A stretch of 64,000 nt of DNA, taken from positions 1,600,001-1,664,000 of the forward strand of contig OZ219856.1 of the NCBI GenBank assembly GCA_964291395.2. Direction: 5' to 3'. Both the position numbers and the translations under genes were made by a program. How positions within the stretch are numbered: the stretch's first letter is position 1; each line of letters starts with the position of its first letter. Source of the DNA: Alphaproteobacteria bacterium (GTDB taxonomy: Bacteria > Pseudomonadota > Alphaproteobacteria > UBA2966). A model generated the notes under the pieces. It did not search any database. It saw only the letters and a program-made list of their open reading frames with translations, and had not been told where the DNA came from. This document shows positions 2,576-53,485 of the stretch, piece after piece.

Positions 2576-3196
2576 ATGCTGAAGGTCTGGGGCCGGGAAA
2601 CGTCGATCAACGTCCAGAAGGTGATGTGGCTCGTGGGAGAACTGGGCCTCGAGTATGAACGGGTCGACGTCGGCGGGCCGTTCGGCGGTCTCGACCAGCC
2701 GGACTACATGGCGATGAACCCGACGAGCCGCATCCCGACGATCGAAGACGACGGTTTCACGCTGTGGGAATCGCACGCCATCGTGAGATACCTCGCACAG
2801 AAGCACGGGGCCGGTTCCTGGTGGCCGGATGATCCTCGTATCCGTGCCGTGGCGGATCAATGGATGGACTGGCCCTACAACGTCGCCTATCCGCAATTGA
2901 TCAGGGCATTCCTCGGGCTTTACCGGACGCCCGAAGACGAACGAGACGACGACGCGATCGCACGGGCCCTGGAGACCTGTGCCAAGGAATTGGGCGTGCT
3001 CGACGCGTATCTGGCGCGAAACGCCTACGTCGCGGGAGACGCACCGACCATGGGCGACATTCCCGTCGGCTGCATCACCTACCGGTGGTATGCCATGGAT
3101 ATCGAACGACCCGAATACCCGAACCTGGCGGCCTGGTATGCACGGCTCCGGGAAAGTCCGGCCTTTCGCGAGCACGCCATGATCCCGCTGAGCTGA
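2576..3196 (+). CDS. Glutathione S-transferase (GstB/YliJ-like)
   Basis: MLKVWGRETSINVQKVMW...MNPTSRIPTIEDDGFTLWESHAIVRYLA; strong GGAGGA RBS before ATG 2576. Confidence 0.92.
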   Translation: MLKVWGRETSINVQKVMWLVGELGLEYERVDVGGPFGGLDQPDYMAMNPTSRIPTIEDDGFTLWESHAIVRYLAQKHGAGSWWPDDPRIRAVADQWMDWPYNVAYPQLIRAFLGLYRTPEDERDDDAIARALETCAKELGVLDAYLARNAYVAGDAPTMGDIPVGCITYRWYAMDIERPEYPNLAAWYARLRESPAFREHAMIPLS

Positions 3197-3306
3197 GCAT
3201 ATGCCTGCATACGGCCGCCCCCCGGAAACACGGGTTGCCGGAGAGCGGTCGCGCCTCCGGTCCTTGATCCCGGCTCGCTGCAAGGGCAGCAAGTGACACA
3301 CGGTAC

Positions 3307-4041
3307 GTGATCGACCCCCTCCTCACCCCGGCGTTCGGGTTTTCCGTATTCGCGGTCAGTCTCGGCGGAATCGTCCGGGGATTCTCGGGCGCGGGATCGG
3401 GCCTCATCATGATTCCCTTGATGTCGCTCGTGTACTGGCCGCCCCAGGCATTGACGATGGCCATCATGATCGGGGTCGTCGGCGCGATTCAGCTCGTTCC
3501 CCAGACGATCCGCCATGTCCGCTGGCGCGACGTGGGACCCATGACCGGAACCGCGGCGGTCGCCATTCCCGTCGGCACGGCGTTTCTGTTCATCGTCGAC
3601 CCGGAGATCACCCGGCGCTGCATCGGCGCCATCGTCCTGCTGTCGTCGCTCGTCCTGTTGAGCGGCTGGATCTATCGTGGTCCGCGCAATCCGGTCACCA
3701 GCGCCTCGGCCGGCGTGGTGGCCGGCCTGATGAACGGCTTCGCCGGGGCCGGCAGCGTGATCCCGACGCTCTACTTCGTGGCGAGCCGGGAGCGCGCCGT
3801 CGTCCTCCGCGCCAACATCTTCACGGTGGTCACCCTGTTTCTCGTCATCACGGCGGTCTCGCTGGCGTTCCGGGGAACGGTGACGCGCGAATCGGTCACC
3901 ATCGCCGCGGCACTTCTGATTCCCTACGGATTCACGATCTGGATCGGTTCCCGCCTGTTCCAGCGCTCCACCGACCGTGTCTATCGGTTGGCCGTCCTGT
4001 GGCTTCTCGCCGCCATCGGGGCATTCGTCGCGATCTACTGA
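3307..4041 (+). CDS. Sulfite exporter TauE/SafE family membrane protein
   Basis: Hydrophobic ~244 aa protein, GGIVRGFSGAGSGLIMIP motif, internal repeat GLMNGFAGAG. Confidence 0.85.
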   Translation: MIDPLLTPAFGFSVFAVSLGGIVRGFSGAGSGLIMIPLMSLVYWPPQALTMAIMIGVVGAIQLVPQTIRHVRWRDVGPMTGTAAVAIPVGTAFLFIVDPEITRRCIGAIVLLSSLVLLSGWIYRGPRNPVTSASAGVVAGLMNGFAGAGSVIPTLYFVASRERAVVLRANIFTVVTLFLVITAVSLAFRGTVTRESVTIAAALLIPYGFTIWIGSRLFQRSTDRVYRLAVLWLLAAIGAFVAIY

Positions 4042-4157
4042 AGCTGTTCCGGTGTTCGGTCCGACAACCGATTTGCCGCGCCGCAATAGGGCGCTGGTTG
4101 CCACATTGGCGCATGGTGGTAGTGTGACGCCATCGCCTCATGACGGCGCTGGAATCC

Positions 4158-4175
4158 GTTGATCGGCCAGTCGAG
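4158..4175. promoter_or_regulatory. Possible BetI-type operator upstream of choX
   Basis: GTTGATCGGCCAGTCGAG is an imperfect palindrome resembling TTGA-N8-TCAA BetI boxes as I recall them. It lies just upstream of a choline transporter. Weak match. Confidence 0.28.
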
Positions 4176-4225
4176 GGGAACGACGTGCACTTCTGATTTC
4201 ATCCGACATCAAGGAGACGACAATC

Positions 4226-5167
4226 ATGACATCACTCCGTATTTTGACTGCTGCTGCGGCCCTATCGATCGGCGTAGGCGCCGCCCAAGCGGCGGACCCG
4301 CCGGCCTGCAAAGAGGTCCGCTTCTCGGACGTCGGTTGGAGCTGCATCACGGCGACCACATCGATCGCCGCCAGCATCCTGGAAGGCCTGGGCTACGAAG
4401 CCAAGGTCGACGTCCTGTCGGTGCCCGTTACGTTCCAGAGCCTGGCGAACAACGATCTTGACGCCTTCCTCGGCCTTTGGCTGCCGACTCAGGAGAGCAT
4501 GATCAGCCCTTACTTCGAGAAGGGCCAGATCGAGAAAGTCACCGTCAATCTCGAGGGCGCGAAGTATACCCTGGCAGTGCCCAAGTATGTCCATGACGCG
4601 GGCGTCAAGAGCTTCGCCGACCTGGCCCAGCACAAGGACAAATTCGATGGCAAAATCTACGGCATCGAGCCGGGCAACGACGGCAACCTGATCATTCAGG
4701 ACATGATCGACAAGAATGCCTTCGGCCTGAGCGGTTGGGAAGTCGTGGAGTCGAGCGAACAGGGCATGCTGAGCCAGGTGCAGCGGGCCACCAAGCGCAA
4801 CGAGTGGATCGTCTACCTGGGATGGGAGCCTCACCCCATGAACCGGCGCTTCGCCATGGCCTACCTGGACGGTGGGGACGATTACTTCGGCCCCAACTTC
4901 GGTGGCGCGACGGTCTACACCCTGGCCCCGGCGGGTTACGTGCAGAAGTGTCCGAACGTCGGCAAGCTGCTGCAGAACCTGGGCTTCACCCTGGCCATGG
5001 AGAACGAGATCATGGGCTACATGCTGGACGACGGCATGGACCCGGGGGCCGCCGCGATGAAGCTCGTCAGGCAAAATCCGGAACTCGTGGACAAGTGGCT
5101 CGCGGGCGTTACCACGCTCGACGGCAAGGAAGGCGCCGCGGCGGTCAGGGTACATCTGGGCATGTAG
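4226..5167 (+). CDS. choX: Choline ABC transporter substrate-binding protein
   Basis: Signal peptide; VRFSDVGW, FLGLWLP, GAKYTLAVP, IYGIEPGNDGN, SSEQGML, LGWEPHPMN, GGDDYFGPNFGGATV. Confidence 0.93.
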   Translation: MTSLRILTAAAALSIGVGAAQAADPPACKEVRFSDVGWSCITATTSIAASILEGLGYEAKVDVLSVPVTFQSLANNDLDAFLGLWLPTQESMISPYFEKGQIEKVTVNLEGAKYTLAVPKYVHDAGVKSFADLAQHKDKFDGKIYGIEPGNDGNLIIQDMIDKNAFGLSGWEVVESSEQGMLSQVQRATKRNEWIVYLGWEPHPMNRRFAMAYLDGGDDYFGPNFGGATVYTLAPAGYVQKCPNVGKLLQNLGFTLAMENEIMGYMLDDGMDPGAAAMKLVRQNPELVDKWLAGVTTLDGKEGAAAVRVHLGM

Positions 5168-5205
5168 CGCCGACGCCCTGGCCCCGATCAATCGAACACG
5201 TATCC

Positions 5206-5252
5206 CGGGGGCGCCCGCTCAATGGGCTCGGACATTGTCCGGGCGTCCCCCG
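5206..5252 (+). other. Intercistronic stem-loop after choX (mRNA stabiliser or partial terminator)
   Basis: CGGGGG-CGCCCG-ct-CAATG ... CATTG-tc-CGGGCG-t-CCCCCG inverted repeat between the binding-protein and permease genes. Confidence 0.55.
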
Positions 5253-5262
5253 ATGAAGGGCA

Positions 5263-6135
5263 ATGGGTGATGCCATGGATTGGCTGACCACGCAGATCTC
5301 CGATCACAAGATTCCGCTTGGCTCCTGGATCGCCGGTTTCTTCGACTTCCTCATAAACAATTTCGCGACCTTCTTCGACTTGCTATCGGCCCTGCTTGAA
5401 TTCGTCGTAGAAGGCCTGACGACGCTGATGCAGGCGTGCCCGCCTTTGGCCCTGATCGCCTCGGTCGCGGTGTTGGCCTGGTGGCTGCACCGCTCCCTGT
5501 GGCTGGTGCTGGGCATCGCGGCGTTTCTGCTGTTGATCATCAACCAGGGGTACTGGGAGCAGACCCTGGAAACCCTGGCCCTGGTGTTCTTCGCCACCTT
5601 GATCTGCATGCTCATCGGGATTCCGATCGGTATCGCCGCGGCACATCGGCCGTGGCTTTATGCGGTGATCCGGCCGATCCTCGACCTGATGCAGACCATC
5701 CCCACCTTCGTCTACCTCATCCCCACTCTGATCCTGTTCGGGCTCGGCGTAGTGCCGGGACTCATCTCGACGGTGATCTTCGCCATCCCGGCACCCATCC
5801 GGCTGACCTACCTTGGCGTGCACTCGGTACCCCAACAGCTTCTGGAGGCCGGCAAGGCTTTCGGTGCCAACAGGCGGCAACTGCTCTGGAAGGTGGAACT
5901 GCCCCACGCGATGCCGACGATCATGGCCGGCCTGACGCAGGCCATAATGTTGTCCCTCTCCATGGTCGTGATCGCCGCGCTCGTAGGCGCCGACGGCCTG
6001 GGCAAGCCGGTGGTGCGGGCGCTCGGAACCGTCAACATCAAGATGGGCATCGAGGCCGGCCTGGCGATCGTCATCGTCGCCATTCTGCTCGACCGCATCT
6101 GCAAGCATCCCGGCCGGAGACACACGGTCGGCTGA
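5263..6135 (+). CDS. choW: Choline ABC transporter permease
   Basis: ProW-type motifs PILDLMQTIPTFVYLIP, LLWKVELPHAMPTIMAG, MLSLSMVVIAALVGADGLG (start may be 5275). Confidence 0.93.
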   Translation: MGDAMDWLTTQISDHKIPLGSWIAGFFDFLINNFATFFDLLSALLEFVVEGLTTLMQACPPLALIASVAVLAWWLHRSLWLVLGIAAFLLLIINQGYWEQTLETLALVFFATLICMLIGIPIGIAAAHRPWLYAVIRPILDLMQTIPTFVYLIPTLILFGLGVVPGLISTVIFAIPAPIRLTYLGVHSVPQQLLEAGKAFGANRRQLLWKVELPHAMPTIMAGLTQAIMLSLSMVVIAALVGADGLGKPVVRALGTVNIKMGIEAGLAIVIVAILLDRICKHPGRRHTVG

Positions 6136-6138
6136 ACG

Positions 6139-7332
6139 ATGCCAGCCATCGCTTTCCAGGACGTCGACATCATCTTCGGCAAGGAGACGGACCGGGCACT
6201 TGCACTCCTCGACGCCGGCCGCACGAGGGATCAAATCCTGGAGGAGACCGGCCAGGTGGTCGGAGTCGCGGGCGCAAGCCTGACGGTGGAAACCGGAGAA
6301 GTCTGCGTCATCATGGGGCTCTCGGGCTCCGGCAAGTCAACTCTGGTGCGCTCCGTAAACGGCCTCAATCAGGTGACTCGAGGCCGGGTGCTGGTGCAGG
6401 ACCGGGAGGCGGAGATCGATATCACGTGCTGCGATGCCCAAACCATCCGCCGCCTGAGGACGGAGCGCATCGCCATGGTGTTCCAGCAGTTCGCGCTGCT
6501 GCCCTGGCGCACCGTGGCGGAAAACGTCGGTCTTGGCCTGGAATTGCGGGGCATGCCGCGCCGCGACCGCGCCGCCATCGTCGACCAAAAGCTCTCATTG
6601 GTAGGTCTGGAGCAGTGGCGAGACAAGTACGCCCACGAGCTCTCTGGCGGCATGCAGCAGCGCGTGGGCCTGGCCCGCGCCTTCGCCACCGATGCCGACA
6701 TTCTGCTCATGGACGAGCCGTTCTCCGCCCTTGACCCGCTGATCCGGGAGAAGCTGCAGGACGAGTTGCAGATACTGCAGCGCCGGCTCAAGAAGACGAT
6801 CCTGTTCGTCAGCCACGACCTGGACGAGGCGCTGAAGCTCGGCACCCATATCGCCATCATGGACAGCGGCCGCATCGTCCAGTTCGGCGAACCGGAGAAT
6901 ATCGTATTGCAGCCCGCCAACGAGTATGTGGCCGAGTTCGTTGCCCACATGAATCCGCTGAACGTTCTGCGTGGCGGCTCCCTGATGACGCCGGTGGAAG
7001 CGCTGCGGCGGGAAGATGACGAGGTGCTTCTTGACCGGGACGGCCGCGTCCGCGTGTCTCTGGACCGGAACGGCGCCCCCACGGCGGTCAGCATCGACGG
7101 CCGACCCGCCTCTCTGATGACCCACGACCAAGTCCGCAACGGGGCCGGCGTCGACGGCGCCACCATGGTGACCGCGCCGGCGGCCATGTCCATGCGCACG
7201 GCGATCGAGTTGCGCCGCGCGAGCGGCATACCGGTGGCGGTGCTCGAAGACGGCAGGTTGGCCGGGGTGTGTGGAGATGAGGAGATCTACCGCGGCATCC
7301 TGCGCCAAGCCGGTGGCCCGGCGAGACCATGA
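6139..7332 (+). CDS. choV: Choline ABC transporter ATP-binding protein
   Basis: Walker A GLSGSGKS, signature LSGGMQQRV, Walker B LLMDEPFSALD, AHMNPLNVL. Confidence 0.93.
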   Translation: MPAIAFQDVDIIFGKETDRALALLDAGRTRDQILEETGQVVGVAGASLTVETGEVCVIMGLSGSGKSTLVRSVNGLNQVTRGRVLVQDREAEIDITCCDAQTIRRLRTERIAMVFQQFALLPWRTVAENVGLGLELRGMPRRDRAAIVDQKLSLVGLEQWRDKYAHELSGGMQQRVGLARAFATDADILLMDEPFSALDPLIREKLQDELQILQRRLKKTILFVSHDLDEALKLGTHIAIMDSGRIVQFGEPENIVLQPANEYVAEFVAHMNPLNVLRGGSLMTPVEALRREDDEVLLDRDGRVRVSLDRNGAPTAVSIDGRPASLMTHDQVRNGAGVDGATMVTAPAAMSMRTAIELRRASGIPVAVLEDGRLAGVCGDEEIYRGILRQAGGPARP

Positions 7333-8183
7333 GGCGAGCGCTGCTGACTCTCTGCCTCGGTCTCGTGACCGCCAGCGCGGAGGCCCACTACGTCGATCTC
7401 GAACAGGCCCTGATCCGCGATCGCGTCCTGACCTTCGGCCTGGCCCTGGTCGGGGAACCGTTCTCCTACCGGCGCGACGGCACGATCCGGGGATTCGAGG
7501 TGGCGGTGGCCAGGGCGGTCGCCGCAGCCCACGATCTCGAGCTGAGACTGGTTCGGCTGGCACGGGACGAACTGAAGCGGGCACTCGACGACGGACGAGT
7601 CGATGCCGTGAACAGCCTGGCCCTGGCAGCCGAGGACCACACCCTCTCGATTTTGCCTTACCTCAGGGTCGGTGATCACGTGATGATCCTCAAGGGAAAC
7701 CCGTTTCGCATCCGCACGCCCGACGATCTTTCGGGACGGGTGGTCGCCGCGACGTCCGGGTCCAGCGCCGAGATCTATGCCCGCGCGCTCAATGACCGTT
7801 TTCTGACCGCGGGCCGGCCGGCCATGCACATCCACACGTTTCCCGAGCAGCGCCATACCCACTTTCCGGTCTCCATGGGTCACGCCAGCGCCTATTTCGT
7901 GAAGAGCGTCAGCGCCGTCGGTATCAGCCGGGATCCGCACGCGCGCACGCGGTTGCTGCCGGGCGCGTTCCAGCCGCGGCGGGAAGCGGGATTCGCCCTG
8001 AGGCCGGACAACCGCGTGCTGCATCACGCCGTCGAACACGCCGTCGCGGCCATGGTGGCGACCGGCAAGCACGAGCGGCTGATGCGGCAATTCGGGCTGC
8101 CGATCGAGCTGAGCCCGTATCCCCGCGACGGCGACCACCAGAGCGGTCCCGGTTCGGCCGCAACCGTTCCGGCCGAGAAATAG
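7329..8183 (+). CDS. ABC transporter substrate-binding protein, family 3 (amino-acid type), orphan
   Basis: Signal peptide; EPFSY..DGTIRGFEVAVARAVA, ALDDGRVD, DDLSGRVVAATSGS; ATGA overlap with choV. Confidence 0.75.
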   Translation: MRRALLTLCLGLVTASAEAHYVDLEQALIRDRVLTFGLALVGEPFSYRRDGTIRGFEVAVARAVAAAHDLELRLVRLARDELKRALDDGRVDAVNSLALAAEDHTLSILPYLRVGDHVMILKGNPFRIRTPDDLSGRVVAATSGSSAEIYARALNDRFLTAGRPAMHIHTFPEQRHTHFPVSMGHASAYFVKSVSAVGISRDPHARTRLLPGAFQPRREAGFALRPDNRVLHHAVEHAVAAMVATGKHERLMRQFGLPIELSPYPRDGDHQSGPGSAATVPAEK

Positions 8184-8263
8184 GACGGTCATTGCGTCAA
8201 ACGCAGAGATCGTAGAACCTTGTTCCTCAGGAAGGCCAACCGCTGGGACAAGGAGTTTGCGAC

Positions 8264-9517
8264 ATGGCGCGAAGAGAGATCGAGGGCGATTGGGTCTTTG
8301 GGTGGCCGGACCGCAAGCGGGCCGAAATCATGCCCAGCAAGGACGTCGAGGGCCGCGTCATCTTCGCCCGCTCTCCGGTGCTCGATCTGGAAGGGATGAT
8401 CACGCCGGTCGATGCCTACTACGTCATCGCCCAACTCGACATGCCGGATCCCATCCATCCCGACGACTACACCTTCTCCGTTTCCGGCGAAGTGGAGAAC
8501 CCGGCGGAGTACGTGCTGGAGGATTTGCGCAAGTTTCCCTCGCGCACCGTCCGCGCGGTGACCGAGTGCGCCGGCAACGACGGTGAGTTCTTCTCGTACA
8601 TGCAGGAAGGCAGCAACATGAAGAAGCCTTCCTTGCGCGTGAAGCAGGACGAGGAAGGCGGCTGGAACCAGATGTCCGACGATGGCGGAATTCCCGACAT
8701 CGAGGACATCCTCGAAGCCATCCCGACGACCTGTCTGGTGAGCGGAGGGGAATGGACGGGCGTACCCCTGCGCGAGGTCCTCAACCGCGCCGGTGTCAAG
8801 GACGGCGCCGTCGCCATCCGAGTCCAGGGCTGGGATACCGGCCGCCCCGATCCGGTCACCCAATACCTGTCGGTCGGCCGGACGGATTTCGAGGTGGTGG
8901 ATCCGGGGATCATCAACTACGACAAGGGCCTTCCCATCGAGAAGGCGATGGACCCGGACACGATCCTCGCCTGGGCCCACAACGGCGAGTACCTGACCCA
9001 CGTGCACGGCGCGCCGCTCCGCATGGTCGTGCCGGGATGGGCCGGGAACTGGTGGGTCAAGTGGATCGAGAAGATCGAGGTCATGGACCACATGCCCGAC
9101 TGCTATTACCAGACTCACTATTTCGTCTCGGGCGATTCACCCGACGATCCCGACAAGAAGCCCATGATGCAGCTTGGGGTGAAGACCCTGATCAAGTACC
9201 CACGCGACGACGACGGTCCCCTGCCCCGCGGCGAGCACGTCATCCGCGGCATGGCCTGGAGCGGCGAAGGCGCCGTCGTGCGGGTCGAGGTGAGCACCGA
9301 CGGGGGCGAAACCTGGAACGACGCCTACGTCGAGGACTCCCGCGACAAGTGGCTGTGGCGCCGCTGGTCCCATGTCTGGGACGCTTCGGAGGCCGGCGAG
9401 TACCGCATCATGGCGCGGGCGACCGACGAGAACGGCCGTGTCCAGCCCCAGACCGGGATGAATTTCCAGCGCAAGCATTTCGACTGGATCGTGCCGGAGG
9501 TGGTGACCGTGGAGTGA
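8264..9517 (+). CDS. Sulfite oxidase family molybdopterin oxidoreductase (cytoplasmic, no heme domain)
   Basis: Mo-ligand ECAGN, EWTGVPLREVL, LAWAHNGEYLTHVHGAPLRMVVPGW.G..WVKW, C-terminal dimerisation domain GMAWSG..RVEVSTDGGETW..RATD..GRVQP. Confidence 0.88.
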   Translation: MARREIEGDWVFGWPDRKRAEIMPSKDVEGRVIFARSPVLDLEGMITPVDAYYVIAQLDMPDPIHPDDYTFSVSGEVENPAEYVLEDLRKFPSRTVRAVTECAGNDGEFFSYMQEGSNMKKPSLRVKQDEEGGWNQMSDDGGIPDIEDILEAIPTTCLVSGGEWTGVPLREVLNRAGVKDGAVAIRVQGWDTGRPDPVTQYLSVGRTDFEVVDPGIINYDKGLPIEKAMDPDTILAWAHNGEYLTHVHGAPLRMVVPGWAGNWWVKWIEKIEVMDHMPDCYYQTHYFVSGDSPDDPDKKPMMQLGVKTLIKYPRDDDGPLPRGEHVIRGMAWSGEGAVVRVEVSTDGGETWNDAYVEDSRDKWLWRRWSHVWDASEAGEYRIMARATDENGRVQPQTGMNFQRKHFDWIVPEVVTVE

Positions 9518-9719
9518 CGGTCACCTTCGACGGAGAGGTACGAATTTGGTCCGCGAATCGGGTTGCGCAGGCGGCGAAGATAGATAGTATGTGGTCGGTC
9601 CGATGACCGACACATGCGTTGTCGATCGCTCCCGCGGGGTTCAGGGCGGATATCCGGCCGGTTTCTTCGCCCGCGTACGACGGGTCACAACGGCAACGAA
9701 GGGGAAAGGAAGGCATAAC

Positions 9720-10969
9720 ATGCGAGACGGTTTCAAGAGTGCTCTCAATCGGCTTCAGGTGAGCCGGCGTGACTTCATGCGCGTGGCCGGCCGCTTCGGC
9801 ATGACGTCGACGCTGTTCGGCGCGGCGTCCGTGGCCACCGGCGCCATCACGCTGCCCAAGCTGGCCAGCGCGGCCGAATCCAATTATGAGAAGCGTTTCA
9901 AGAAGGAGCCGAAACACACCCTCAAATTCGGCCCCGACGGCCTCAGCGCGGAGCGTCTTCTGATCCAGCGCTCGGGCGAGTTGTTCTGGTCCCAAGACAT
10001 CGAGGAGCGTACCGACGGCGAAATCCGCATCGAGTTCATCGGCAGCGGCCAGATCTGCAACCAGCTCGATTGCATCAAGAAGTGCCAGCAGGGAATCATC
10101 GACATCTACTCGTCGTCGACCCAGAACGCCGCCGGCTCGGCTCCCTACCTCAACGTTCTCGACTACGCCTACGTGTTCCCGACCCGGGCGTCCCAGTACT
10201 ACTTCTTCTATCACCCGAAGAGCGAGGCAACTGCTTCGCGAGCCCATGCGCCGCATTCACGGCATCGTGTGCCTGCACACCCATGCCGAGCTGCGCAACA
10301 TGATGATGGGCCTGAAGTACAACGACTCCAAGGATCTCACCAAGATCGAGGACCTCTTCGGCACCAAGAACAGGGTGACGGGCACGCAGTTGGGCCGCAT
10401 CGCCATGCAGCTCATGAACCTCAACCCGGTTCCCATCGCCTGGGAGGAGACGCTCGACGGCCTCAAGCAGGGCTTGGTGGACGGCGCCGAGACGTGGTCG
10501 TCGGCTTCGGCGTTCGCCAACATGGGTCCGGTGGTCGCGCAGGACGTGGGACTGGAGTTCTTCTCGGGCAACCACCTCTCGGGGATGCGGATTCAGACGT
10601 ACGAGTCGCTGTCGCCGGAACTGCAGGATGCCGTGATGGAATCCGCCTACACCTCGCAGGTCATGGTCCAGCACGCCAACGAGGCATCGTTGATCAACGT
10701 GGTCGGCGCCTCGTCGCCGCAGCACCCCAACACGCACTATTCGCAGCACAACGTGCGTTTCGTGCCGTTCTCGGCCGAGGAGAAGAAGAAGTGCCAGGAG
10801 CTGTGCTCGCCGGAATTCGTGCCGGAGCCGTGGGAGAAGTGGCGCAATCGGATCAACAAATGGGCGAAGGGCCTGGATACCTACACGGAGGTCTTCAATA
10901 TCGCCCGCGAGATCCCGGAAACGATGCTGGCGGAGCACGTCGAGCCCCGGCGTTGGTGGAAGAAGCTAG
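9720..10969 (+). CDS. dctP: TRAP transporter substrate-binding protein DctP with Tat signal (apparent frameshifts near 10230 and 10965)
   Basis: SRRDFMRV twin-arginine leader; IEERTDGEIRIEFIGSGQIC; continues in another frame as LLREPMRR...PVPIAWEETLDGLKQGLVDGAETW...PRRWWK; TAG at 10967 followed by a hairpin. Confidence 0.85.
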
Positions 10970-10980
10970 TCCGTTCGATT

Positions 10981-11010
10981 AAGGTGCGGGGGCCGTCGCC
11001 CCCGCGCCTT
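10981..11010 (+). other. Stem-loop after dctP (mRNA stabiliser or terminator)
   Basis: AAGGTGCGGGGGC-cgtc-GCCCCCGCGCCTT, a 13-bp stem with one G-U pair. Confidence 0.65.
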
Positions 11011-11069
11011 CATTTCCCATCAGGATTCTACGGCGGGTCGGCAAGGCTCCGCCTAACCATCTGGAGTTG

Positions 11070-11604
11070 ATGATGGCCCCGTTGCTTGCGGCGCTGCGCT
11101 GGATCGACCAGAACCTGGAGAAGTGGATTATCCTCGCGGCCTACATGACCATGGGCGGGATAATCTTCGTCGAGGTTATCCGCCGCTTCGCGTTCTCGCT
11201 TCAGGCGCCCTGGAGCACCTCCGTTCCCGTATACCTCTTTCTCTGGGTGACGTGGCTCGGCTGCGCCTACAACGTCAAGATCCGCACCCACCTGAGCTTC
11301 GACGAGCTGCGGCTCAGGATGCCCTACAATGCCCAGTTCCTCTGCCTGATCCTCGACGCGGTCTGCTGGATCGTGTTCTCGCTGATCGTGGTCTACTTCA
11401 CGATCGAACAGGTCCAGGTCGTGCACATGAACTTCGCCATCGTGCAGGGCACCGACGACATCATGCAGTGGTGGTTCTACATCCATCACCCCGATCGCCT
11501 GGGCGCTGATCATCTACCGTTCCCTGGAGAACCTCTGGCAGGACTACCAGCAGTTCCAGCGCAAGGAGCCCTTCCAGATCGTCCACTCCATACTGGGCGA
11601 CTGA
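11070..11604 (+). CDS. dctQ: TRAP transporter small permease DctQ (apparent frameshift near 11483)
   Basis: IFVEVIRRF...YLFLWVTWLGCAY...HLSFD; C-terminus ITPIAWALIIYRSLENLWQD..LGD* lies in another frame ending at TGA 11604. Confidence 0.82.
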
Positions 11605-11618
11605 GGGAGGACGACGTC

Positions 11619-12955
11619 ATGGATGCACTGCTCGTCACCCTCGTCAGCGCTGGTATCATGGTGCTGTTCGTACTGGGCGTACCCATCATTCTGATCATCG
11701 GCCTGTGGACCGCCGGCGTCAGCCTCGTCATCGACTTCACGCTCTCGAACATCGGCGTCACGCTGTTCGAGGGGGTGAACTTCTACGGCCTGCTCGCCCT
11801 GCCCCTGTTCATCCTGACCGGCGACTTCATCAACGCCTCCGGCATCGCCAAGAAGCTGACCGACTTCGCCTACTCGGCGCTCGGCTGGCTGCGCGGCAGC
11901 CTGGCGATGGCCACGATCGGTGCCTGCGGCCTGTTCGCCGCCATCTCGGGGTCCAACTCGGCCACCACGGCGGCGATCGGCTCGATCATGTACCCCGAGC
12001 TCAAGAAGGGCGGCTACGACGAGAATTTCGCCGCGGCAACCTCGGCCGCGGGCGGTACCGTGGGCATCATCATCCCGCCCAGCATCGTGTTCATCATCTA
12101 CGGCTTCCTGATGCACCTGTCGATCAGCGACCTGTTCATCGGCGGCCTGCTGCCGGGCGTCCTGATGGTCATGGCGATGATGGTCGCGTGCTGGGGCGTC
12201 TGCACCTTCAAGAAGTGGGGCCAGCTCATCGAGTTCGACATCAGGCGCATCGCGCGCGATACCGTGGGCGCCTACCTCGGCTTCATCGCCATCTTCATCA
12301 TCATCTTCGGCATCTACTCGGGGACCTTCTCGCCGACCGAGGCCGCGGGGATCACCGCGGGCTACTGTCTGTTCTCCGGCCTCTTCATCACGCGGCAGAT
12401 GAAGTGGAAGAACCTGCCCGCCGTGATCATGCGGTCGGGACAGATCACCGGCCTGCTGGCGCCGTTGATCGCCATCTCGATCGTCATGCAGCAGGTGCTC
12501 TCGTTGCTGGGCGCGCGGGATTTCGTGTCCGAGATGATCAGCGGATTGGGCGGCTACTACCCGGTCCTGTTCGCCTGCATGTTCTTCGTGCTGGCGGCGG
12601 GGACCTTCCTGGAGAGCGTCCCCAACACGATCATCCTGGCCCCCATCCTGGCGCCGATCGCGGCGGGGATCGGGGTCGACCCGATCCACTTCGCGGTCAT
12701 ATTCCTGGTCGGCGACGCGATCGGCTTCATCACGCCGCCTTACGGGCTCAACCTGTACGTGGCAAGCGGTATCACCGGCATCCCGTACTTCCGATTATTG
12801 AAGTTCGTGATGCCGTACCTGCTTGCCCTGCTCATAGCGTGGATGTTCATCGCCTGATCCCCGAGCTCTCCACCTATCTCGTGGAACTGGGCGTCCAAGG
12901 CGCCGGGGTCAGGGGTACGGGCGGGGGCGAGGCGGGCTCGTTCGGCCAGCAGTGA
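11619..12955 (+). CDS. dctM: TRAP transporter large permease DctM (apparent frameshift near 12853)
   Basis: Own RBS GGAGGA before ATG 11619; LLALPLFILTG, FAAISGSNSAT, GIIIPPS, FSPTEA, GFITPPYGLNLY; last residues LIPELSTYL.. in a shifted frame. Confidence 0.88.
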
Positions 12956-13089
12956 CCATGGGTTGACCGCTCGACCGGAGGCCGGCGGGGTGCGTGCGCC
13001 CCGCCGGATCCATCCCGCACCGCGCGGATTCGCGCTCGCAAACGTCGTCCAGATGCGCTAAATCACGTGTCAGGAAATGGAGGGTTCCG

Positions 13090-14325
13090 ATGGCTCGAAA
13101 CGCGAAGCAATGGAACGCGCATCCCGATCCCAGCCGGATCGAGTGGGCGGACAGCCGAATCTACAGCGACGAGGAGATCTTCGAGGAAGAGCTGGAGAAG
13201 ATCTGGAAAAAGGTCTGGATTCCGGTCTGCCACGAATCCGAACTTCCGGAACCTTACGACTTCCGGACCATGTCGATCGCGCGGGAGCCGGTAATCGTCT
13301 GCCGCGACGCGGACGACAAGATCCGGGCCTTCCTCAACGTCTGCCCGCACCGGGCCAACCTGATCGAGCGCCGGCCCTCCGGCAGCTTCAAGGAAGGCAC
13401 GCCGTCCGGCAACCCGAAGAACATGACCTGCATGTTCCATGCCTGGCAGTTCGACATGAAGGGCCGCTGCGTGCACATCTCCCGCGGCGAGGAAGGCTAT
13501 CAGGACCGGCTGTCGCCCAAGGACGTGGGCCTGCGCCGCCTACGCTGCGAAGTGGCCTTCGGCGGGATGGTCTGGGTGACGCTCCACGATCACATCGAGC
13601 AGAGCGTTCAAGAGTGGGTGGGCAGCGCGCTCGACTGCATTCTCGAGCCCATCGAGGCCGAGCCCCTGGAGATCTTCCACTACCACAAGTCGGTCATCCC
13701 CTCGAACTACAAACTGTGGCACGACACGAACAGCGAGTTCTATCACGACTTCGTCCACTACCATAACCGCGTCACGGGCTTCAACGACGCCTATTTCGCC
13801 CGCAAGAACATGACCTTCGACAACGGTCACGTCGTCGTCGGCTCCTTCGAGGTGCAGTACGACCAGTACGAGGGGTTCGAGTCCCGTGAAGCGCTCAGCT
13901 TCCCGACCCTGCCGCCGAACAACTGGTACATGATCGATATCTTCCCGGGCATCAACTACAACCTCCGCGGCTCGGCCCTGCGCGTCGATCTGATGACGCC
14001 GTTGTCCGCCAACGAGGTCATGATCGAGTTCCGCGGCCTCGGTCTCAAGAAGGACACGGAAGAAGAGCGCCTTACGCGCGTCCGGCACCACAACACCATC
14101 TGGGGTCCGATGGGCCGGAACCTGCACGAGGACCTCCTCAGCATTACGGGTCAGGGCGTGACCATGCGTCCGGGGACGGAGCCCCGGCACATTTTGCACG
14201 GGCGTCACGAGAACGAGACGATCCACGACGAAGTCGGGATGCGCCACTACTACGACGAATGGTCCCGCTGGATGGGCAGGCCCTTGCACAATCCGACCAA
14301 CCGTCCCGCCGTGGCGGCCGAGTAG
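13090..14325 (+). CDS. msmA: Methanesulfonate monooxygenase hydroxylase large (alpha) subunit, Rieske non-heme iron
   Basis: Rieske motif CPH-X26-CMFH (the 26-residue spacer characteristic of MsmA); NSEFYHDFVH mononuclear Fe site; GRNLHEDL; TIHDEVGMRHYY. Confidence 0.88.
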   Translation: MARNAKQWNAHPDPSRIEWADSRIYSDEEIFEEELEKIWKKVWIPVCHESELPEPYDFRTMSIAREPVIVCRDADDKIRAFLNVCPHRANLIERRPSGSFKEGTPSGNPKNMTCMFHAWQFDMKGRCVHISRGEEGYQDRLSPKDVGLRRLRCEVAFGGMVWVTLHDHIEQSVQEWVGSALDCILEPIEAEPLEIFHYHKSVIPSNYKLWHDTNSEFYHDFVHYHNRVTGFNDAYFARKNMTFDNGHVVVGSFEVQYDQYEGFESREALSFPTLPPNNWYMIDIFPGINYNLRGSALRVDLMTPLSANEVMIEFRGLGLKKDTEEERLTRVRHHNTIWGPMGRNLHEDLLSITGQGVTMRPGTEPRHILHGRHENETIHDEVGMRHYYDEWSRWMGRPLHNPTNRPAVAAE

Positions 14326-14340
14326 CCGCGTATCCCGCCG

Positions 14341-14841
14341 ATGGCCATGGCAAAGCGCAGCGCCGCCGTCGAGGCGGTGAAGGACACCGTCTACCGCACC
14401 TGCCTGCTGCAGGATGACGAGCGTTGGTCGGATTGGCTCGAACTCTGCGACGAGGAGTTCCACTACAAGATCACGGCCTACAGCCCCGAGATCCGCAGGG
14501 ACGTGCTCTATCTCGACGGGGACCGAGGGCAGATCGCGCAGATGTGCGAGCTGTTGCCCAAGCACAATACCGACCACTCGCCGCTCAAGCGTCACGCGGT
14601 CGTCTATACGGTCGACATCGACGACGACGGCGGATCGGCCAAGGCCGTGACGTCGTTCGTGATCTATCAGAACATGCTCGACGGCGTAAATTCGCACATC
14701 GACGCCGGCGAGAATCACCTGTTCGCGGTCGGGCGTTACCTCGACAGTTTCGCGATCAGGGATGACGAGGCCCGATTCGTCGCCCGCGAGGTTCGCCTCG
14801 AGACGCGGCGCCTCGACAAGGGAACCCACTGGCCTCTCTAG
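14341..14841 (+). CDS. msmB: Methanesulfonate monooxygenase hydroxylase small (beta) subunit
   Basis: NTF2-like beta subunit: YKITAYSPEIRR, LPKHNTDHSPLKRHA, VRLETRRLDKGTHWPL; directly follows the alpha subunit. Confidence 0.85.
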   Translation: MAMAKRSAAVEAVKDTVYRTCLLQDDERWSDWLELCDEEFHYKITAYSPEIRRDVLYLDGDRGQIAQMCELLPKHNTDHSPLKRHAVVYTVDIDDDGGSAKAVTSFVIYQNMLDGVNSHIDAGENHLFAVGRYLDSFAIRDDEARFVAREVRLETRRLDKGTHWPL

Positions 14842-14868
14842 CGCCCTCCCCTCCCTGGAGCCATCGCC

Positions 14869-15243
14869 ATGACATGGAAACGGGTCTGCGCGACCGGTGA
14901 CGTCGCCGAGAACGGTCTCAAGCTGTTCGACGTCGACGGCATCTCCATCCTCATCGTCAACCACGGCGGCGACTTCAAGGCGATTCCTCCGCTCTGCCCG
15001 CACATGGAGGAACCGCTCGCACAGTCGGGCATCTGCGACGGCAAGGTCCTCACCTGCACCAAGCATCTGTGGCAGTGGGACCTTGCGACCAACGAACCCC
15101 AGGCGGAGACGGAAAAGCCCCTGCTGATGTACGACCTCAGAGTCGCGGTCGACGACATCGAGGTCTTCGTGGAACAAGAACTCGAATACGAGTTCGACGA
15201 GGACGACGATTACGACGACGACGACTCGTTCTGGGATGACTGA
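14869..15243 (+). CDS. msmC: Rieske ferredoxin of methanesulfonate monooxygenase
   Basis: CPH-X17-CTKH motif, MTWKRVC N-terminus, acidic C-terminal tail. Confidence 0.85.
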   Translation: MTWKRVCATGDVAENGLKLFDVDGISILIVNHGGDFKAIPPLCPHMEEPLAQSGICDGKVLTCTKHLWQWDLATNEPQAETEKPLLMYDLRVAVDDIEVFVEQELEYEFDEDDDYDDDDSFWDD

Positions 15244-15299
15244 GGCCTCTGATCGGGAGCAAAGGGCGCGTTCCGTTCCGTGGCCTCCCTCCCGTTCTC

Positions 15300-15364
15300 C
15301 CAATTCGTAAAAATTTACTGAATTGGTGACCTCATGTTGGCGCACGCTACATGGTTGGTATAAC
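15300..15364 (+). promoter_or_regulatory. AT-rich inverted repeat plus putative sigma70 promoter for the DUF1302 operon
   Basis: CCAATTC-GTAAA..TTTAC-t-GAATTGG (15300-15326); TTGGCG-N16-TATAAC with TGn extension (15337-15364). Confidence 0.45.
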
Positions 15365-15436
15365 ATAATAAAGGCGCGGGCCAGCGGCGCGGGCAACGCC
15401 GACCGCCGCCAACGAGACCACGACAGGGGAGAGGCC

Positions 15437-17551
15437 ATGTGGAACGTTCTTGAACCCGGCACGGCCGGGCCGCTGTCCCGGCGGGAAACCGTCTCGAAAC
15501 CGGTTCGCGGCTCCCTGGTCCTGGCGGCGAGCGCCCTCGCCCTCACCGGACTCCTGCAGGCGCCTCCCGCGCAGGCGGTCGAGTTCGGCATCGGCGAGCT
15601 AAGGGGGAGCCTGGATACCACCATCTCGCACGGCGCGACCATCCGCGTCGGCAGGCGCAGCGACATTCTGGCGGCCGGCGCCAACGACAACGACGGCAAC
15701 CTCAACTACGACCGCGGCGTCGTCAGCAACACCTCCAAGTTCACCAGCGATCTCGACCTCGAGATAGGCAACTTCGGCGCCTTCGCCCGCGTCACCGGGT
15801 TCTTCGACTTCGAGAACGAGAACAACGAGCGGGAGCGCACCCCGTTGAGCGACGAGGCGATGGATCGGGTGGGGAAAGACATCGACGTGCTCGACCTTTA
15901 CGCCACCGGCGCGTTCGAGGTCGGCGGCGCGGCGCTCGATCTGCGGCTCGGCAGACACGTGCTCAACTGGGGCGAGAGCACCTTCATCCAGAACGGCATA
16001 AACGCCATCAACCCGTTCGACGTGAGCAGGCTGCGCACGCCGGGCTCGGAACTGCGCGAAGCGCTGCTGCCGGTCTCGATGTTCTCGGCCTCGGTGGCGC
16101 CGACCGACACTCTGTCGGTGGAAGGCTTCTATCAGCTCGCCTGGGAGGAGACCGAGATCGACCCGGTCGGCAGCTTCTTCTCGGTCACCGACTATGTCGG
16201 CCCTGGCGCGACGAGGGCGGTGATTCCGTTATCCGACGGCGTGAACGACGAGGGATGGATTTGGGCCTCACGCCGGCTATCAATGCCGACCTCGCCGGTT
16301 TCGGCGTCAACGTCCCGGGGGGCGGGCTCGTCCCCATGCCGCAACCGCTTCAGCCGGACTTCGATGCCGGCTTCCTGAACGTGATACGCGCCTCGGACCG
16401 GGACCCCGGCGACTCGGGCCAGTGGGGAGTGGCGCTTCGTCACTTCGCCGAGGACCTGAACGCCACCGAGTTCGGCTTCTATTTCATCAATTACCATAGC
16501 CGCCTGCCGATCGTCAGCGCACGCACCGGCAGCCTGCGGAACGCAAGGTGCCGGTCTATTCGCGGCCCAGGCCGTGAGTGCGCGGATTCCCGCCACCGTC
16601 GGGGCGGTGACCCAGGCAGTGACAGGAGCGGTTACTCCGGCGGTGACCGCAGCGGTAACCCAGAGTGTCACAGCGACGCCTCCAGGAATCGCGGCGATCC
16701 CGCCGCCGCCCAGGGCACATCGCACGCGGAAGTGCGTCGGCCAGGTAACCGAGCAGGTGGCCACTCGGGTGTCCGCACAAGTTGAGGGCCGCCGGGCCTC
16801 GCGGTCGACCGCTACGCGAAGACGGGCACTACTTCATCGAGTATCCCGAGGACATCCAGCTTTTCGGCCTGAGCTTCAACACCCTGCTCGGGGCCTCGGG
16901 CTGGGCGTTGCAGGGCGAGTACTCCTTCCGCCCCGATACGCAGCTGCAGAGAGCCGAACGACGCCCTGTTCGCGGACGGCCTCGCACCCATAAGGACGGC
17001 CTTGTCACTCGCCAGCAGCGATCCGGCAGCCCTCGGTAACGTCCTCTCCACCTACGCGCCATCACAGGGTTCAGGGCTACGTCGAGCGCGACGTGAGTCA
17101 GGCGCAGGCCACCGCCACGAAGGTGTTCGGCCCCACGTTCGGCGCCGACGGCATGGCGTTCGTGACGGAAGTCGCCCTGATGCACGTGCACGGCATGCCA
17201 GACAAGAATGCGACGCCCCTGGAGAGCCCGGCCGGAGGCAGACTTGAGGACACCGAGGCGGACGCCGACGCCACCTCCTGGGGCTACCGGCTGGCGGCAC
17301 GGCTCGACTACAACAACGCGATCGGGGCGGCGAACCTGTTCCCGTATCTCCAGTTCGGACACGACGTGGGCGGCAACAGCCCCGCGCCGATCGGCTCGTT
17401 CGTGGAGGGCCGGACCGCGTTGACCCTCGGACTGCGCGCCGATTATCTCAACCGCTGGGAGGCCGGCATCGGCTATACGCGGTACGGGGGCAAGGGCACC
17501 GAGCGGAGCGACCGCGACTTCGTCTCCGCCTCCGTCAGGTACTCGTTCTGA
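15437..17551 (+). pseudogene. DUF1302 family outer-membrane protein, split by about 5 apparent frameshifts
   Basis: GSLDTTISHG, NDNDGNLNYDRG, RLGRHVLNWGESTFIQNGINAINPFD, SGQWGVA, YFINYHSRLP, YFIEYPEDIQLFGLSFNT, SWGYRL, terminal DRDFVSASVRYSF. Segments lie in successive frames; may be sequence error. Confidence 0.8.
16604..16675 (+). repeat. Degenerate 12-bp tandem repeat x6 encoding (A/S)VTx
   Basis: gcggtgacccag gcagtgacagga gcggttactccg gcggtgaccgca gcggtaacccag agtgtcacagcg. Confidence 0.75.
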
Positions 17552-26894: not shown

Positions 26895-27824
26895 ATGGCC
26901 GCACCGCAGAAACGCCTGGGATTCATCGGACTGGGCGCGATGGGCAAGCCCATGGCGCGGAACATCGCGAAACGTCTAGGCATCTCCGTCAATCTGTACG
27001 ACGTGCGCGCCGAGGCCATGGCCGACTCCGACGAATGGGGCGGCATCGTCCGTGCTTCACCGGCCGAGGTCGCCGCCGTGAGCGACGTGATCTTCACCAT
27101 GCTGCCTGCGGACGAGCACCTGCGGGCGGCTGCCCTCGGCCCCGACGGAGTCATCGAGAGCGCGCGGGACGGCTTGACCTTGGTCGACTTCAGCACCCTC
27201 GGTCCGGCGACCATCCGCGAGGTCGATGCGAAATTTCGCGAGAAGGGCGCCCGATGCCTCGCCGCCGCCGTGACTCTCGGCGTGCCGCGCGCCATCGCAG
27301 GCACGCTTTCGGTTTACGTGGACACGGCGGTCAACGAAGACGAGGATCTCATGGCCTTCGTGCGGGGGTGTTCGGCCACCGTGCTGCCCATCGGCGAGAC
27401 CGGCAGCGCCAAGGTGATGAAGCTCGTGAACAACTTCCTGACCGGGGTGGGCACCGTGATCATCTCCGAAGTCATCGGCCTCGGGGTCAAGGCCGGTGTC
27501 CCCGCGGAGACGCTGTTCCGGCTTCTGATGAAAGGGTCCGGCGCAAGCTACCTCATGGAGAAGGAGATCATGGAGACGGTGCCCAAGGGGGACATGGGTC
27601 CCGGCCGATTCAGCGTCGATTTCATGGTCAAGGACCTGAAGCTCGCGCAGGAGATGGGCCGCCAGCACGGACACCCGAGCCACTATATCGCGGCGGCCCT
27701 CGCGGCCTTCAACGGCGCCCGGGCCTATGGGCACGGAAACGATTACGTGGGCTCGGTCGTTCGCTGGCATGAGACCGCCGCGAACATGGAGCCGGTCGGG
27801 CCGACGGAAAAGGTACAGACATGA
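26895..27824 (+). CDS. NAD(P)-dependent beta-hydroxyacid dehydrogenase (3-hydroxyisobutyrate DH family)
   Basis: GFIGLGAMGKPMARN, VDFST, MKLVNN, FMVKDL. Confidence 0.88.
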   Translation: MAAPQKRLGFIGLGAMGKPMARNIAKRLGISVNLYDVRAEAMADSDEWGGIVRASPAEVAAVSDVIFTMLPADEHLRAAALGPDGVIESARDGLTLVDFSTLGPATIREVDAKFREKGARCLAAAVTLGVPRAIAGTLSVYVDTAVNEDEDLMAFVRGCSATVLPIGETGSAKVMKLVNNFLTGVGTVIISEVIGLGVKAGVPAETLFRLLMKGSGASYLMEKEIMETVPKGDMGPGRFSVDFMVKDLKLAQEMGRQHGHPSHYIAAALAAFNGARAYGHGNDYVGSVVRWHETAANMEPVGPTEKVQT

Positions 27825-28729
27825 AGATCGGTACCGTCGGCATCGGCGCCATGGGAGCACCCATGGCCCGGAACCTCGCCCAGGGCGGCGATTCCGTTCT
27901 CGCATTCGATGTCGCCCCCGAGAAGGTGGACGCGATCGCCGGCAACGGTGTCGAACGGGCCGGGGCCGTGGCCGATATAGCGCGAGAGTGCGAGCTGATC
28001 GTCCTGATGACCCCGGACGACAAGGCGCTGCGCGACGTCATGCTGGGAGACGGCGGAATCCTGTCCGTCGGGTCGTTCTCCGGGTGCGTCGTCGACCTCA
28101 GCACCACGTCCGAGAATCTCGCCCGCGAGATCGGCGCGGCGGCCGCCGCGCAGGGGGTGGGATACCTCGACGGCGCCGTCATCGGCGGCAGCGTCGCGGC
28201 CGCGCGCAACGCGGCGTCACCGGTCGTCGTCTCGGGCGACGAGGCCTTGCTCGAGCGCTACCGGCACGTGCTCGAACGTCTCGGCTCGGTCGACTATGCC
28301 GGCGTCCAGGGCAACGCGAAAATCGTGAAGATCTGCAATAACCTGCTGCTCGGCATGCACACGGTGTCGGGAGCCGAAGCGCTGTCCGTCGGAGAAGCCG
28401 CGGGGCTTGCGCTTGAAGACATGGTCGCCTGGCTCGACGTGAGCTCCGGCAACACCGCGGCGATGCAGGTGATGTTCGGGTATTTCGTCGAGCACGGTAC
28501 GTTTCCCGAAGGAAACGCCTCGTTCAAATTCTTCGACAAGGACATGGCGCTCGGTTGTGCGCTGGCCGAACGCCAAGATTACCCGGCGTCCCTGGCCCTG
28601 CTGACGCGCGAGCTGCTCGCGACCGCCGCCCAGATGGAAGGAGCCGGTGCCCCTTTCGCTTCGGTCCTCGCCTATTACCGGACCATGCAGCGCGCCGTCG
28701 CCGGGGGCGACAAACCGTCGTCCGCCTGA
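27821..28729 (+). CDS. NAD(P)-dependent beta-hydroxyacid dehydrogenase (second copy)
   Basis: VGIGAMGAPMARN, VDLST, YLDGAVIGG, VKICNN, FDKDM; ATGA overlap with the previous gene. Confidence 0.88.
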   Translation: MKIGTVGIGAMGAPMARNLAQGGDSVLAFDVAPEKVDAIAGNGVERAGAVADIARECELIVLMTPDDKALRDVMLGDGGILSVGSFSGCVVDLSTTSENLAREIGAAAAAQGVGYLDGAVIGGSVAAARNAASPVVVSGDEALLERYRHVLERLGSVDYAGVQGNAKIVKICNNLLLGMHTVSGAEALSVGEAAGLALEDMVAWLDVSSGNTAAMQVMFGYFVEHGTFPEGNASFKFFDKDMALGCALAERQDYPASLALLTRELLATAAQMEGAGAPFASVLAYYRTMQRAVAGGDKPSSA

Positions 28730-28790
28730 GGCGTCTCCGGCGCGCGGGCGCGATCATTCCGACGAAGCGGGAGACTTCCGCGGGGGAGAC

Positions 28791-31888: not shown

Positions 31889-32101
31889 GACGGGCCTCCG
31901 GTTCACATGGGAATTTCCCGGACCACGGCAAATTTGAACCCTTCGCGACGATGCCGCAAGAGACCGCCAAACGGGGCCACGTATGAGGGTTGGCGCCAGC
32001 GGATGGGAGGTCCGTCATGCGCGGCGCGTGATATCACGCCGCGAGTCGGTTAGAAAGCGGGATGCTCCCCGCCTTCCGCGGACCACCGATGCCTGCAGCC
32101 C

Positions 32102-53450: not shown

Positions 53451-53485
53451 GGCGAAGGTCGGACCAGCTTCCAGGAGGACATCCG

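Follow-up and report, generated by a model that had tools for sequence, protein, structure and literature searches.

Gene content of the locus and of its relatives

This study concerns a putative methanesulfonate (MSA) utilization locus in a stretch of 64,000 nucleotides (positions 1,600,001 to 1,664,000 of contig OZ219856.1, from an uncultured, marine-type alphaproteobacterium of the lineage UBA2966), which is called the window in the following. Oxidation of dimethylsulfide in the atmosphere yields MSA as a major product, and MSA monooxygenase (MSAMO) is, to our knowledge, the only enzyme known for the use of MSA as a carbon source. Open reading frame (ORF) calls and Pfam domains agree in placing seven co-oriented genes on the plus strand at positions 8264-15243, as an earlier note on this DNA had claimed (Table 1). 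They comprise msmABC, encoding the MSAMO hydroxylase and its ferredoxin, the dctPQM genes of a tripartite ATP-independent periplasmic (TRAP) transporter and, at the upstream end, a gene for a molybdenum enzyme of the sulfite oxidase (SUOX) fold, abbreviated here as Mo enzyme. The locus is new, being a variant of the known msm system, and is so far restricted to one group of uncultured Alphaproteobacteria. A literature search, in which supplements were not covered, found no paper on msmABC in combination with a TRAP transporter or with a cytoplasmic gene of the sulfite oxidase family.

For comparison, genome contigs were scanned with an MsmA alignment. The scan confirmed 575 candidate stretches, and the best 80 of these 575 together with the window form the survey set of 81 loci, four of which are too short to judge, so that 77 are assessable for msmD, the gene of the NADH-dependent reductase. 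The loci were searched by tblastn with the window proteins and with MsmD, MsmEFGH and TauE of Filomicrobium insigne (locus L037), the latter identified by Pfam. In 70 of the 77 assessable loci msmD follows directly after msmC on the same strand, with a median gap of about 80 nt. It is lacking in seven: the window, the loci L001 to L005 and L054. A close orthologue of the Mo-enzyme gene (84-91% identity) was found only in the window and L001-L005, and TRAP genes only in the window and L001-L004 (contigs CAXXKS010000001.1, OY282368.1, OZ251449.1 and OZ241357.1), whereas the other 75 msm loci have no such Mo-enzyme gene within 10 kb. The non-canonical gene architecture proposed in the earlier note is thus borne out. 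So is the lack of an NADH reductase, as neither MsmD of L037 nor the GR-type ferredoxin reductase of L054 had any tblastn match in the 64-kb window at E<=10; L001-L005 likewise gave no MsmD-like match at this threshold. A second msm copy was not seen in the 64-kb window either.

The six loci with the Mo-enzyme gene form one clade in an MsmA tree (quick method, midpoint root) with a support of 100 in the approximate likelihood ratio test (SH-aLRT), and of all inner branches of the tree, the one that carries this clade is the longest (0.35). The expected co-occurrence of this type of Mo enzyme with the absence of msmD was found in all six loci but in one clade only, and the anticorrelation of the two genes therefore reflects a single evolutionary event and not repeated co-variation. 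Within the clade, the Mo-enzyme gene and msmABC keep their adjacency and orientation in six of six members, down to a nucleotide identity of about 78-80% (L005); between the window and L001-L004 the module region is 88-91% identical. The adjacency survives local rearrangements, namely an insertion upstream of the module in the window, inserts within it in L002 and L004, and the lack of TRAP genes between the Mo-enzyme gene and msmA in L005. The contig of L005 starts within the former gene, whose end is about 75 nt from msmA. Values of dN/dS between L001 and the window range from 0.04 to 0.20 over all genes, which indicates purifying selection.

Absence of the dedicated reductase gene is not confined to this clade. 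In L054 (Magnetovibrio), msmEFGH and msmABC occur without msmD, and a ferredoxin reductase with Pyr_redox_2 and Reductase_C domains is encoded 1.4 kb downstream on the other strand (13708-14952, minus strand of L054), which looks like a non-orthologous replacement of MsmD. For Marinosulfonomonas methylotropha TR3, msmABC and msmABD are described as separate operons (PMC4433239). Taken together, these two cases argue that the reductase of MsmC is a replaceable or unlinked part of the system.

The earlier note had also claimed that the MsmEFGH ABC transporter is absent from the window. This holds: MsmE had no match, and MsmF, MsmG and MsmH matched only genes of a choline-type ABC transporter, at 23-31% identity. 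Across the survey MsmE is present in 57 of 81 loci and missing from 24, of which 18 are canonical, so that the absence of msmEFGH is not special. These 18 msmABCD loci lack MsmE within the fetched flanks, some of which are short (examples are L007, L021, L028, L031, L041, L060, L064 and L079). MSA may therefore often be taken up by systems other than msmEFGH.

Genes for the handling of sulfite recur at msm loci. TauE-like genes are present in 20 of the 81 loci, and SoxC-like genes, whose products are 25-30% identical to the Mo enzyme of the window, lie a few kb from msmABCD in 17; all six of these 17 that were checked exceed the SoxC equivalog cut-off. TauE and SoxCD also lie near msm in Filomicrobium Y (PMC4433239). 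Upstream of the module, L001-L004 all carry a gene for a TauE-type sulfite exporter as a conserved neighbour. In L001 it lies about 500 nt before the Mo-enzyme gene, and the gene order there reads GST, GST, TauE, Mo enzyme, dctPQM, msmABC, HlyD, AcrB.

The hydroxylase genes themselves are of the usual kind. The ORF of msmA starts at 12994 or 13090, and the 411-residue form corresponds to the latter position. Its Rieske motif is CPH-X26-CMFH, with the ligands C85, H87, C114 and H117 invariant among 22 aligned MsmA sequences, and the 26-residue spacer is named as a hallmark of MsmA in PMC5068391. MsmA of the window is 69-74% identical to proteins named methanesulfonate monooxygenase large subunit. 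MsmB is 52-69% identical to the product of the gene after msmA in all other loci and is present wherever the locus is long enough. A search of the PDB with MsmA returned no solved MSAMO (best E 2e-26).

The ferredoxin named in the earlier note is one indeed and can be specified as Rieske-type by Pfam. The 77 MsmC sequences compared are without exception Rieske ferredoxins and share one type of acidic tail, and MsmC of the window is indistinguishable in type from the canonical protein. The acidic tail had been considered as a specialty of the clade; this was rejected, as the tail is general to MsmC. Among positions with at least 95% conservation outside the clade, it shows no specific change in MsmC or MsmB and eight in MsmA, among them G73D and G89A, the latter two residues after the Rieske ligand His87. 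The similarity of the clade to other clades is 0.70-0.71 for MsmA, 0.56-0.60 for MsmB and 0.54-0.56 for MsmC, versus 0.71, 0.57 and 0.50 between the gammaproteobacterial and alphaproteobacterial clades. All three proteins are therefore as similar to those of other clades as the latter two clades are to each other, and judged by sequence msmABC encode a hydroxylase and a Rieske ferredoxin that are ordinary orthologues of those of MSAMO. Nothing in the sequence of MsmC suggests a new partner.

Table 1. Features of the msm module and its surroundings in the window.
Feature	Position	Strand	Basis
TauE/SafE-type sulfite exporter	3307..4041	+	Pfam PF01925; 80% identity to TauE of L001
SUOX-fold Mo enzyme, 417 aa	8264..9517	+	Pfam PF00174 (2e-42) and PF03404 (4.5e-15)
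dctP, TRAP solute-binding protein	9720..11070	+	Pfam DctP matches in two frames
dctQ, TRAP small membrane subunit	11067..11604	+	Pfam DctQ, aa 30-139 of a 596-aa ORF
dctM, TRAP large permease	11619..12857	+	Pfam DctM, TIGR00786
msmA, hydroxylase alpha, 411 aa from MARNAKQW	13090..14325	+	Pfam Rieske and Ring_hydroxyl_A
msmB, hydroxylase beta, 166 aa	14341..14841	+	Pfam Ring_hydroxyl_B/SnoaL_4
msmC, Rieske-type [2Fe-2S] ferredoxin, 124 aa, acidic C-terminal tail	14869..15243	+	Pfam Rieske
DUF1302 gene, pieces	15323-16378, 16255-16785, third frame ~16800-17090, 17093-17551	+

The molybdenum enzyme and its possible roles

Translated from the first start codon of the frame, the Mo enzyme begins with MARREIEGDW and has neither a Tat nor a Sec leader nor a heme domain. 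This agrees with the claim of a cytoplasmic enzyme, and the leader is absent in all 27 aligned members of the family. A cytochrome c gene was not found nearby: only two CxxCH strings are encoded in positions 1-22000, neither of them in a plausible cytochrome gene. The NCBIfam equivalog scores stay below the cut-offs of SoxC (193 vs 420), SorA (183 vs 600) and SorT (151 vs 570). SoxC (2xts) and SorA (2blf) are the best solved relatives, at about 1e-37; when a family profile is used, the value is 1e-48.

Alignment with SorA indicates which parts of the active site are kept. Cys102 aligns with the Mo-ligand Cys104 and Tyr286 with Tyr236 of SorA, and both are invariant in the family. The equivalent of Arg55 is Ile55, with I, V, L or N but never Arg across the 27 members; that of His57 is an invariant Gln57; and that of Arg109 is Gly107, with an invariant Asp106 beside it near the loop of the Mo-ligand Cys. 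In addition, about 35 residues are inserted at positions 111-160. Arg55 and Arg109 of SorA are, judged by motif spacing, the counterparts of Arg138 and Arg190 in chicken sulfite oxidase. The latter two residues hydrogen-bond sulfite and sulfate (PMC5856855). Going by this alignment, the active site differs from that of a classical sulfite oxidase, and high-affinity oxidation of sulfite by the Mo enzyme appears doubtful.

A pocket of lower positive charge than in sulfite oxidases, with Ile/Val at 55, Gly at 107 and an invariant Asp106 but with Cys102 and Tyr286 retained, would suit a substrate other than a dianion. This leads to an alternative in which the Mo enzyme acts ahead of MSAMO on an S(IV) compound that is methylated or carries less charge. 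Examples would be methanesulfinate, oxidised to MSA, and a sulfoxide, oxidised to a sulfone; the oxo-transfer chemistry would be unchanged, and the electrons may pass to MsmC or to some other acceptor. Such a sulfinate or sulfoxide substrate fits the pocket somewhat better than the sulfite required by the redox-closed cycle discussed below. Nevertheless, we regard the proposal as very unlikely: no paper on a bacterial gene for a molybdenum-dependent sulfinate dehydrogenase was found among the literature listings searched, and other leaderless SUOX lineages (P0378, P0382 and P0385) also lack the first arginine, so its loss is not specific to the msm context.

The Mo enzyme belongs to a broad family with high sequence conservation. 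Among the matches listed this family comprises at least 120 clusters at 59-100% identity, mostly of 404-429 residues, and where names are given they read 'molybdopterin-dependent oxidoreductase' or similar only. Clustering at the 50% level leaves a single full-length representative (P0224), followed by a sister group at 45% identity (P0361 and P0364) which also lacks both arginines. Again among the matches listed, those to the Mo enzyme run continuously from 100% to 59% identity, whereas those to MsmA drop directly from 93% to 74%; most members of the Mo-enzyme family therefore probably live without an MsmA of this clade. A comparison of the longest contigs among the 120 best matches each to MsmA, the Mo enzyme and DctP gave no shared value, which carries no information on co-location, as each cluster is represented by one contig. 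A tblastn search of plasmids for the context of the family gave 401 records, all below 60% identity with the best at about 35%, and hence no context of the subfamily.

Two fusion proteins from metagenomes were seen in this comparison. P0364 (714 aa) joins an F420-type luciferase-like oxidoreductase domain (aa 12-281) to a Mo domain of the sister subfamily, and this may be a hint to a partner or an artefact. P0386 (556 aa), which is 38% identical to the window protein, joins a cysteine dioxygenase type I to a classical sulfite oxidase domain. It was rejected as bearing on the present subfamily, since it keeps both arginines.

A family of this breadth raises the question whether the Mo enzyme has any functional tie to MSA metabolism, or whether it is a housekeeping protein from a widespread family, placed beside msmABC by chance in this lineage. 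A chance neighbour would agree with the broad conservation of the family and its single representative cluster at the 50% level, with the 75 other msm loci that do without such a gene, and with a region that takes up insertions easily. However, adjacency and orientation are kept in all six clade members despite rearrangements on both sides, and the gene sits between a sulfite exporter and a sulfite-producing oxygenase. We thus consider a mere bystander unlikely.

The earlier note had gone further and suggested a redox-closed cycle, in which sulfite from the MSAMO reaction, or a sulfinate precursor, serves as electron donor: its oxidation by the Mo enzyme would yield two electrons for the reduction of MsmC, so that the C-S bond would be cleaved without NAD(P)H and without an NADH reductase. 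Mutual exclusion is indeed perfect in the sample, as six of six loci with the Mo enzyme lack msmD and 70 of 70 with msmD lack the Mo enzyme. Moreover, the Mo enzyme would share the cytoplasm with MSAMO and has no encoded acceptor of its own, be it a heme domain or the product of a nearby cytochrome gene; its gene directly precedes msmA in L005; and the stoichiometry of the cycle would balance.

The indirect evidence leans against such a cycle, and we judge both the cycle with sulfite and, more generally, the Mo enzyme as electron source of the oxygenase to be highly improbable. The exclusion pattern goes back to one clade and thus to one event. Two arginines for the binding of sulfite are lacking in the Mo enzyme, whose active-site loop has acquired an Asp, and MsmC, the supposed electron acceptor, has no clade-specific substitution. 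Strong acidity is common to the Mo enzyme, with a pI of 4.68 and a net charge of about -29, and to MsmC, with values of 4.05 and about -23; by contrast, MsmD of L037 has a nearly neutral pI of 6.55. More than 100 clusters of the Mo-enzyme family at 59-80% identity have no matching series of MsmA. The cycle would also need sulfite before sulfite can be made. The Mo centres of the known sulfite-oxidising enzymes are not known to have potentials clearly below those of Rieske ferredoxins, which speaks against this direction of electron transfer as well. Finally, L054 and the operons of strain TR3 (PMC4433239) show that the reductase can be replaced or unlinked.

Transport genes and surroundings of the module

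The earlier note had listed dctPQM among the genes of the module. All three domains are present, but the genes are not intact, and each carries frame-breaking indels of 1 nt which are specific for the window in the alignment with L001-L004. In dctP, which encodes a Tat-like leader (SRRDFMRV), an additional nucleotide at about 10226 breaks the frame and another at about 10963 puts the stop codon out of frame. A further one at about 11481 in dctQ leads to an in-silico fusion with dctM as ORF 11067-12857, and the true C-terminus of DctQ is readable in the next frame of a three-frame translation. In dctM, the loss of one nucleotide at about 12854 creates a TGA and cuts off about 33 codons, as the gene extends to the equivalent of about 12955 in the relatives. 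In L001-L004 dctPQM are intact; in L001 dctP encodes 415 aa (6658-7905) and dctQ 178 aa (8003-8539).

These frameshifts could mean that the module is being lost in the organism of the window, with real and recent damage to the TRAP genes and an impaired or abolished use of MSA. Besides the indels in all three TRAP genes, none of which lies within a long homopolymer, there is a second multiply frameshifted gene next door: the DUF1302 gene at 15323-17551 is broken over at least three frames (Table 1), with intact DUF1329, BNR and MMPL genes behind it. The remaining Pfam-scanned ORFs of the window, 38 in one scan and the rest in another, revealed no further gene with a family match split over two frames. 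Such clustering argues for real gene decay over random error. On the other hand, dN/dS of the TRAP genes versus L001 is 0.04-0.13, as low as between intact relatives, so that the damage must be very recent or else an assembly artefact. The Mo-enzyme gene and msmABC are still intact, without indels of this kind. We consider loss of the module in this organism distinctly improbable.

Compared with L001-L004, an insertion separates TauE from the Mo-enzyme gene in the window (4226-8183, plus strand). It encodes an ABC transporter of the choline type, with ChoX, ChoW and ChoV above the NCBIfam cut-offs, and an additional SBP_bac_3 protein. This insertion coincides with the decay of the TRAP genes. 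The block of DUF1302, DUF1329, BNR and MMPL genes is inserted after msmC in the window and does not occur at that position in L001-L005. L002 (3882-6532) and L004 (4353-6561) share an insert of 2.2-2.7 kb between the Mo-enzyme gene and dctP, with a lower GC content (57-63%) and a mutual identity of 82-86%; the ORFs tested in it had no Pfam match.

Several other genes near the module may be connected with the handling of formaldehyde. In L005 two 3-hydroxyisobutyrate-dehydrogenase-like genes follow directly after msmC. Such genes lie further downstream in L001 and in the window, where they are accompanied by a PanB-like hydroxymethyltransferase, and a glutathione-dependent formaldehyde-activating (GFA) gene is also kept nearby. 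The regions of these genes are 26895-29654 (plus strand) and 31460-31906 (minus strand) in the window and 2645-4473 and 8431-8922 in L005. A PanB-like gene is listed in the msm region of Filomicrobium Y (PMC4433239). Further sulfur-related genes of the window are located at 50985-54634, 58170-60224 (minus strand) and 61502-62218 (plus strand), and encode a TauD-family dioxygenase, a pyridoxal phosphate (PLP)-dependent enzyme with a CBS domain, a PLP enzyme of the Cys/Met type, a leaderless molybdopterin oxidoreductase of the bis-molybdopterin guanine dinucleotide type and a second TauE.

An Rfam scan of the window gave no match and hence no molybdenum cofactor riboswitch. Scanning of positions 7900-15700 for promoters and terminators yielded two promoter-like sites (1.2 expected) and one terminator-like site (4.3 expected), none of them informative.

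Proposed function and comparison with known systems

The interpretation we favour, and in which belief and doubt are about evenly balanced, is that of a lineage-specific variant MSAMO locus in one genus-level group of uncultured Alphaproteobacteria, with the reductase encoded elsewhere and the Mo enzyme acting on an S(IV) compound. MSA or a close analogue would be imported by the TRAP system in the relatives of the window organism and hydroxylated by MsmAB to formaldehyde and sulfite; the TRAP genes occupy a place at which importer genes would be expected. MsmC would receive the two electrons required from an NAD(P)H:ferredoxin reductase whose gene lies at another place in the genome. For the Mo enzyme we propose the slot of S(IV) disposal which is held by periplasmic SoxC-type enzymes in canonical loci: the substrate it oxidises in the cytoplasm may be sulfite or a similar compound of S(IV), with TauE exporting the remainder. 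We count the recurrence of sulfite-handling genes (TauE, SoxC) at msm loci in favour of this role.

Several observations weigh against this interpretation. The TRAP importer is broken in the window itself, its solute-binding protein is only remotely like solved ones (best E 8e-11 in the PDB), and relatives of DctP at 62-67% identity occur in Roseobacter-group bacteria, where they were not seen sharing contigs with msmA. A candidate for the reductase was found neither in the 64-kb window nor in the 9 kb downstream of msmC in L001-L005. Since the equivalents of SorA Arg55 and Arg109 are missing and an invariant Asp lies beside the Mo-Cys loop, sulfite may not be the substrate of the Mo enzyme. 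Its family is widespread, and the adjacency to msm could thus be fortuitous.

The locus shows that the oxygenase core of MSA utilization can pair with a different type of importer and lose its dedicated reductase. It also offers a concrete physiological context for an orphan cytoplasmic enzyme of the sulfite oxidase family, beside a sulfite-producing reaction. If the Mo enzyme did reduce MsmC, which is unlikely on present evidence, a Rieske oxygenase would be powered in a manner without precedent, and such orphan enzymes would have their first physiological acceptor.

With the canonical msmABCD and msmEFGH operons of Methylosulfonomonas methylovora M2 and Filomicrobium spp., the window locus shares the order A-B-C with short gaps, the 26-residue spacer of MsmA, MsmB and a Rieske-type MsmC with acidic tail. 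Its MsmA is about 70% identical to that of canonical loci, including those of Filomicrobium (L023, L024 and L037). It differs by the absence of msmD and msmEFGH and by the TRAP genes and the cytoplasmic SUOX-fold enzyme upstream. An msmABC unit without msmD is already on record in M. methylotropha TR3, whose reductase sits in a second msm operon (PMC4433239); in the 64 kb of the window there is no second msm copy or msmD.

The Mo enzyme resembles SorAB, SorT and SoxCD in the SUOX fold, the dimerisation domain, the Mo-ligand Cys and the equivalent of Tyr236. Unlike these periplasmic enzymes it has no leader and no cytochrome partner, the equivalents of Arg55, His57 and Arg109 are replaced, about 35 residues are inserted and the scores are far below the equivalog cut-offs. 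As a single-subunit, leaderless and cytoplasmic protein it fits, by description only, the uncharacterised single-subunit cytoplasmic enzymes of the sulfite oxidase family that form group 3 of Kappler's scheme as summarised in PMC7759655. Among solved structures it is closest to SorA and SoxC. With the heme-less sulfite oxidases of Deinococcus and plants it has in common that only a Mo domain and a dimerisation domain are present. The Deinococcus 'sulfite oxidase' genes are the best matches on plasmids, but at about 33-35% identity, and the plant sulfite oxidase 1ogp matches the Mo enzyme at E 3e-26. As far as is known, both the Deinococcus and the plant enzymes keep the substrate arginines.

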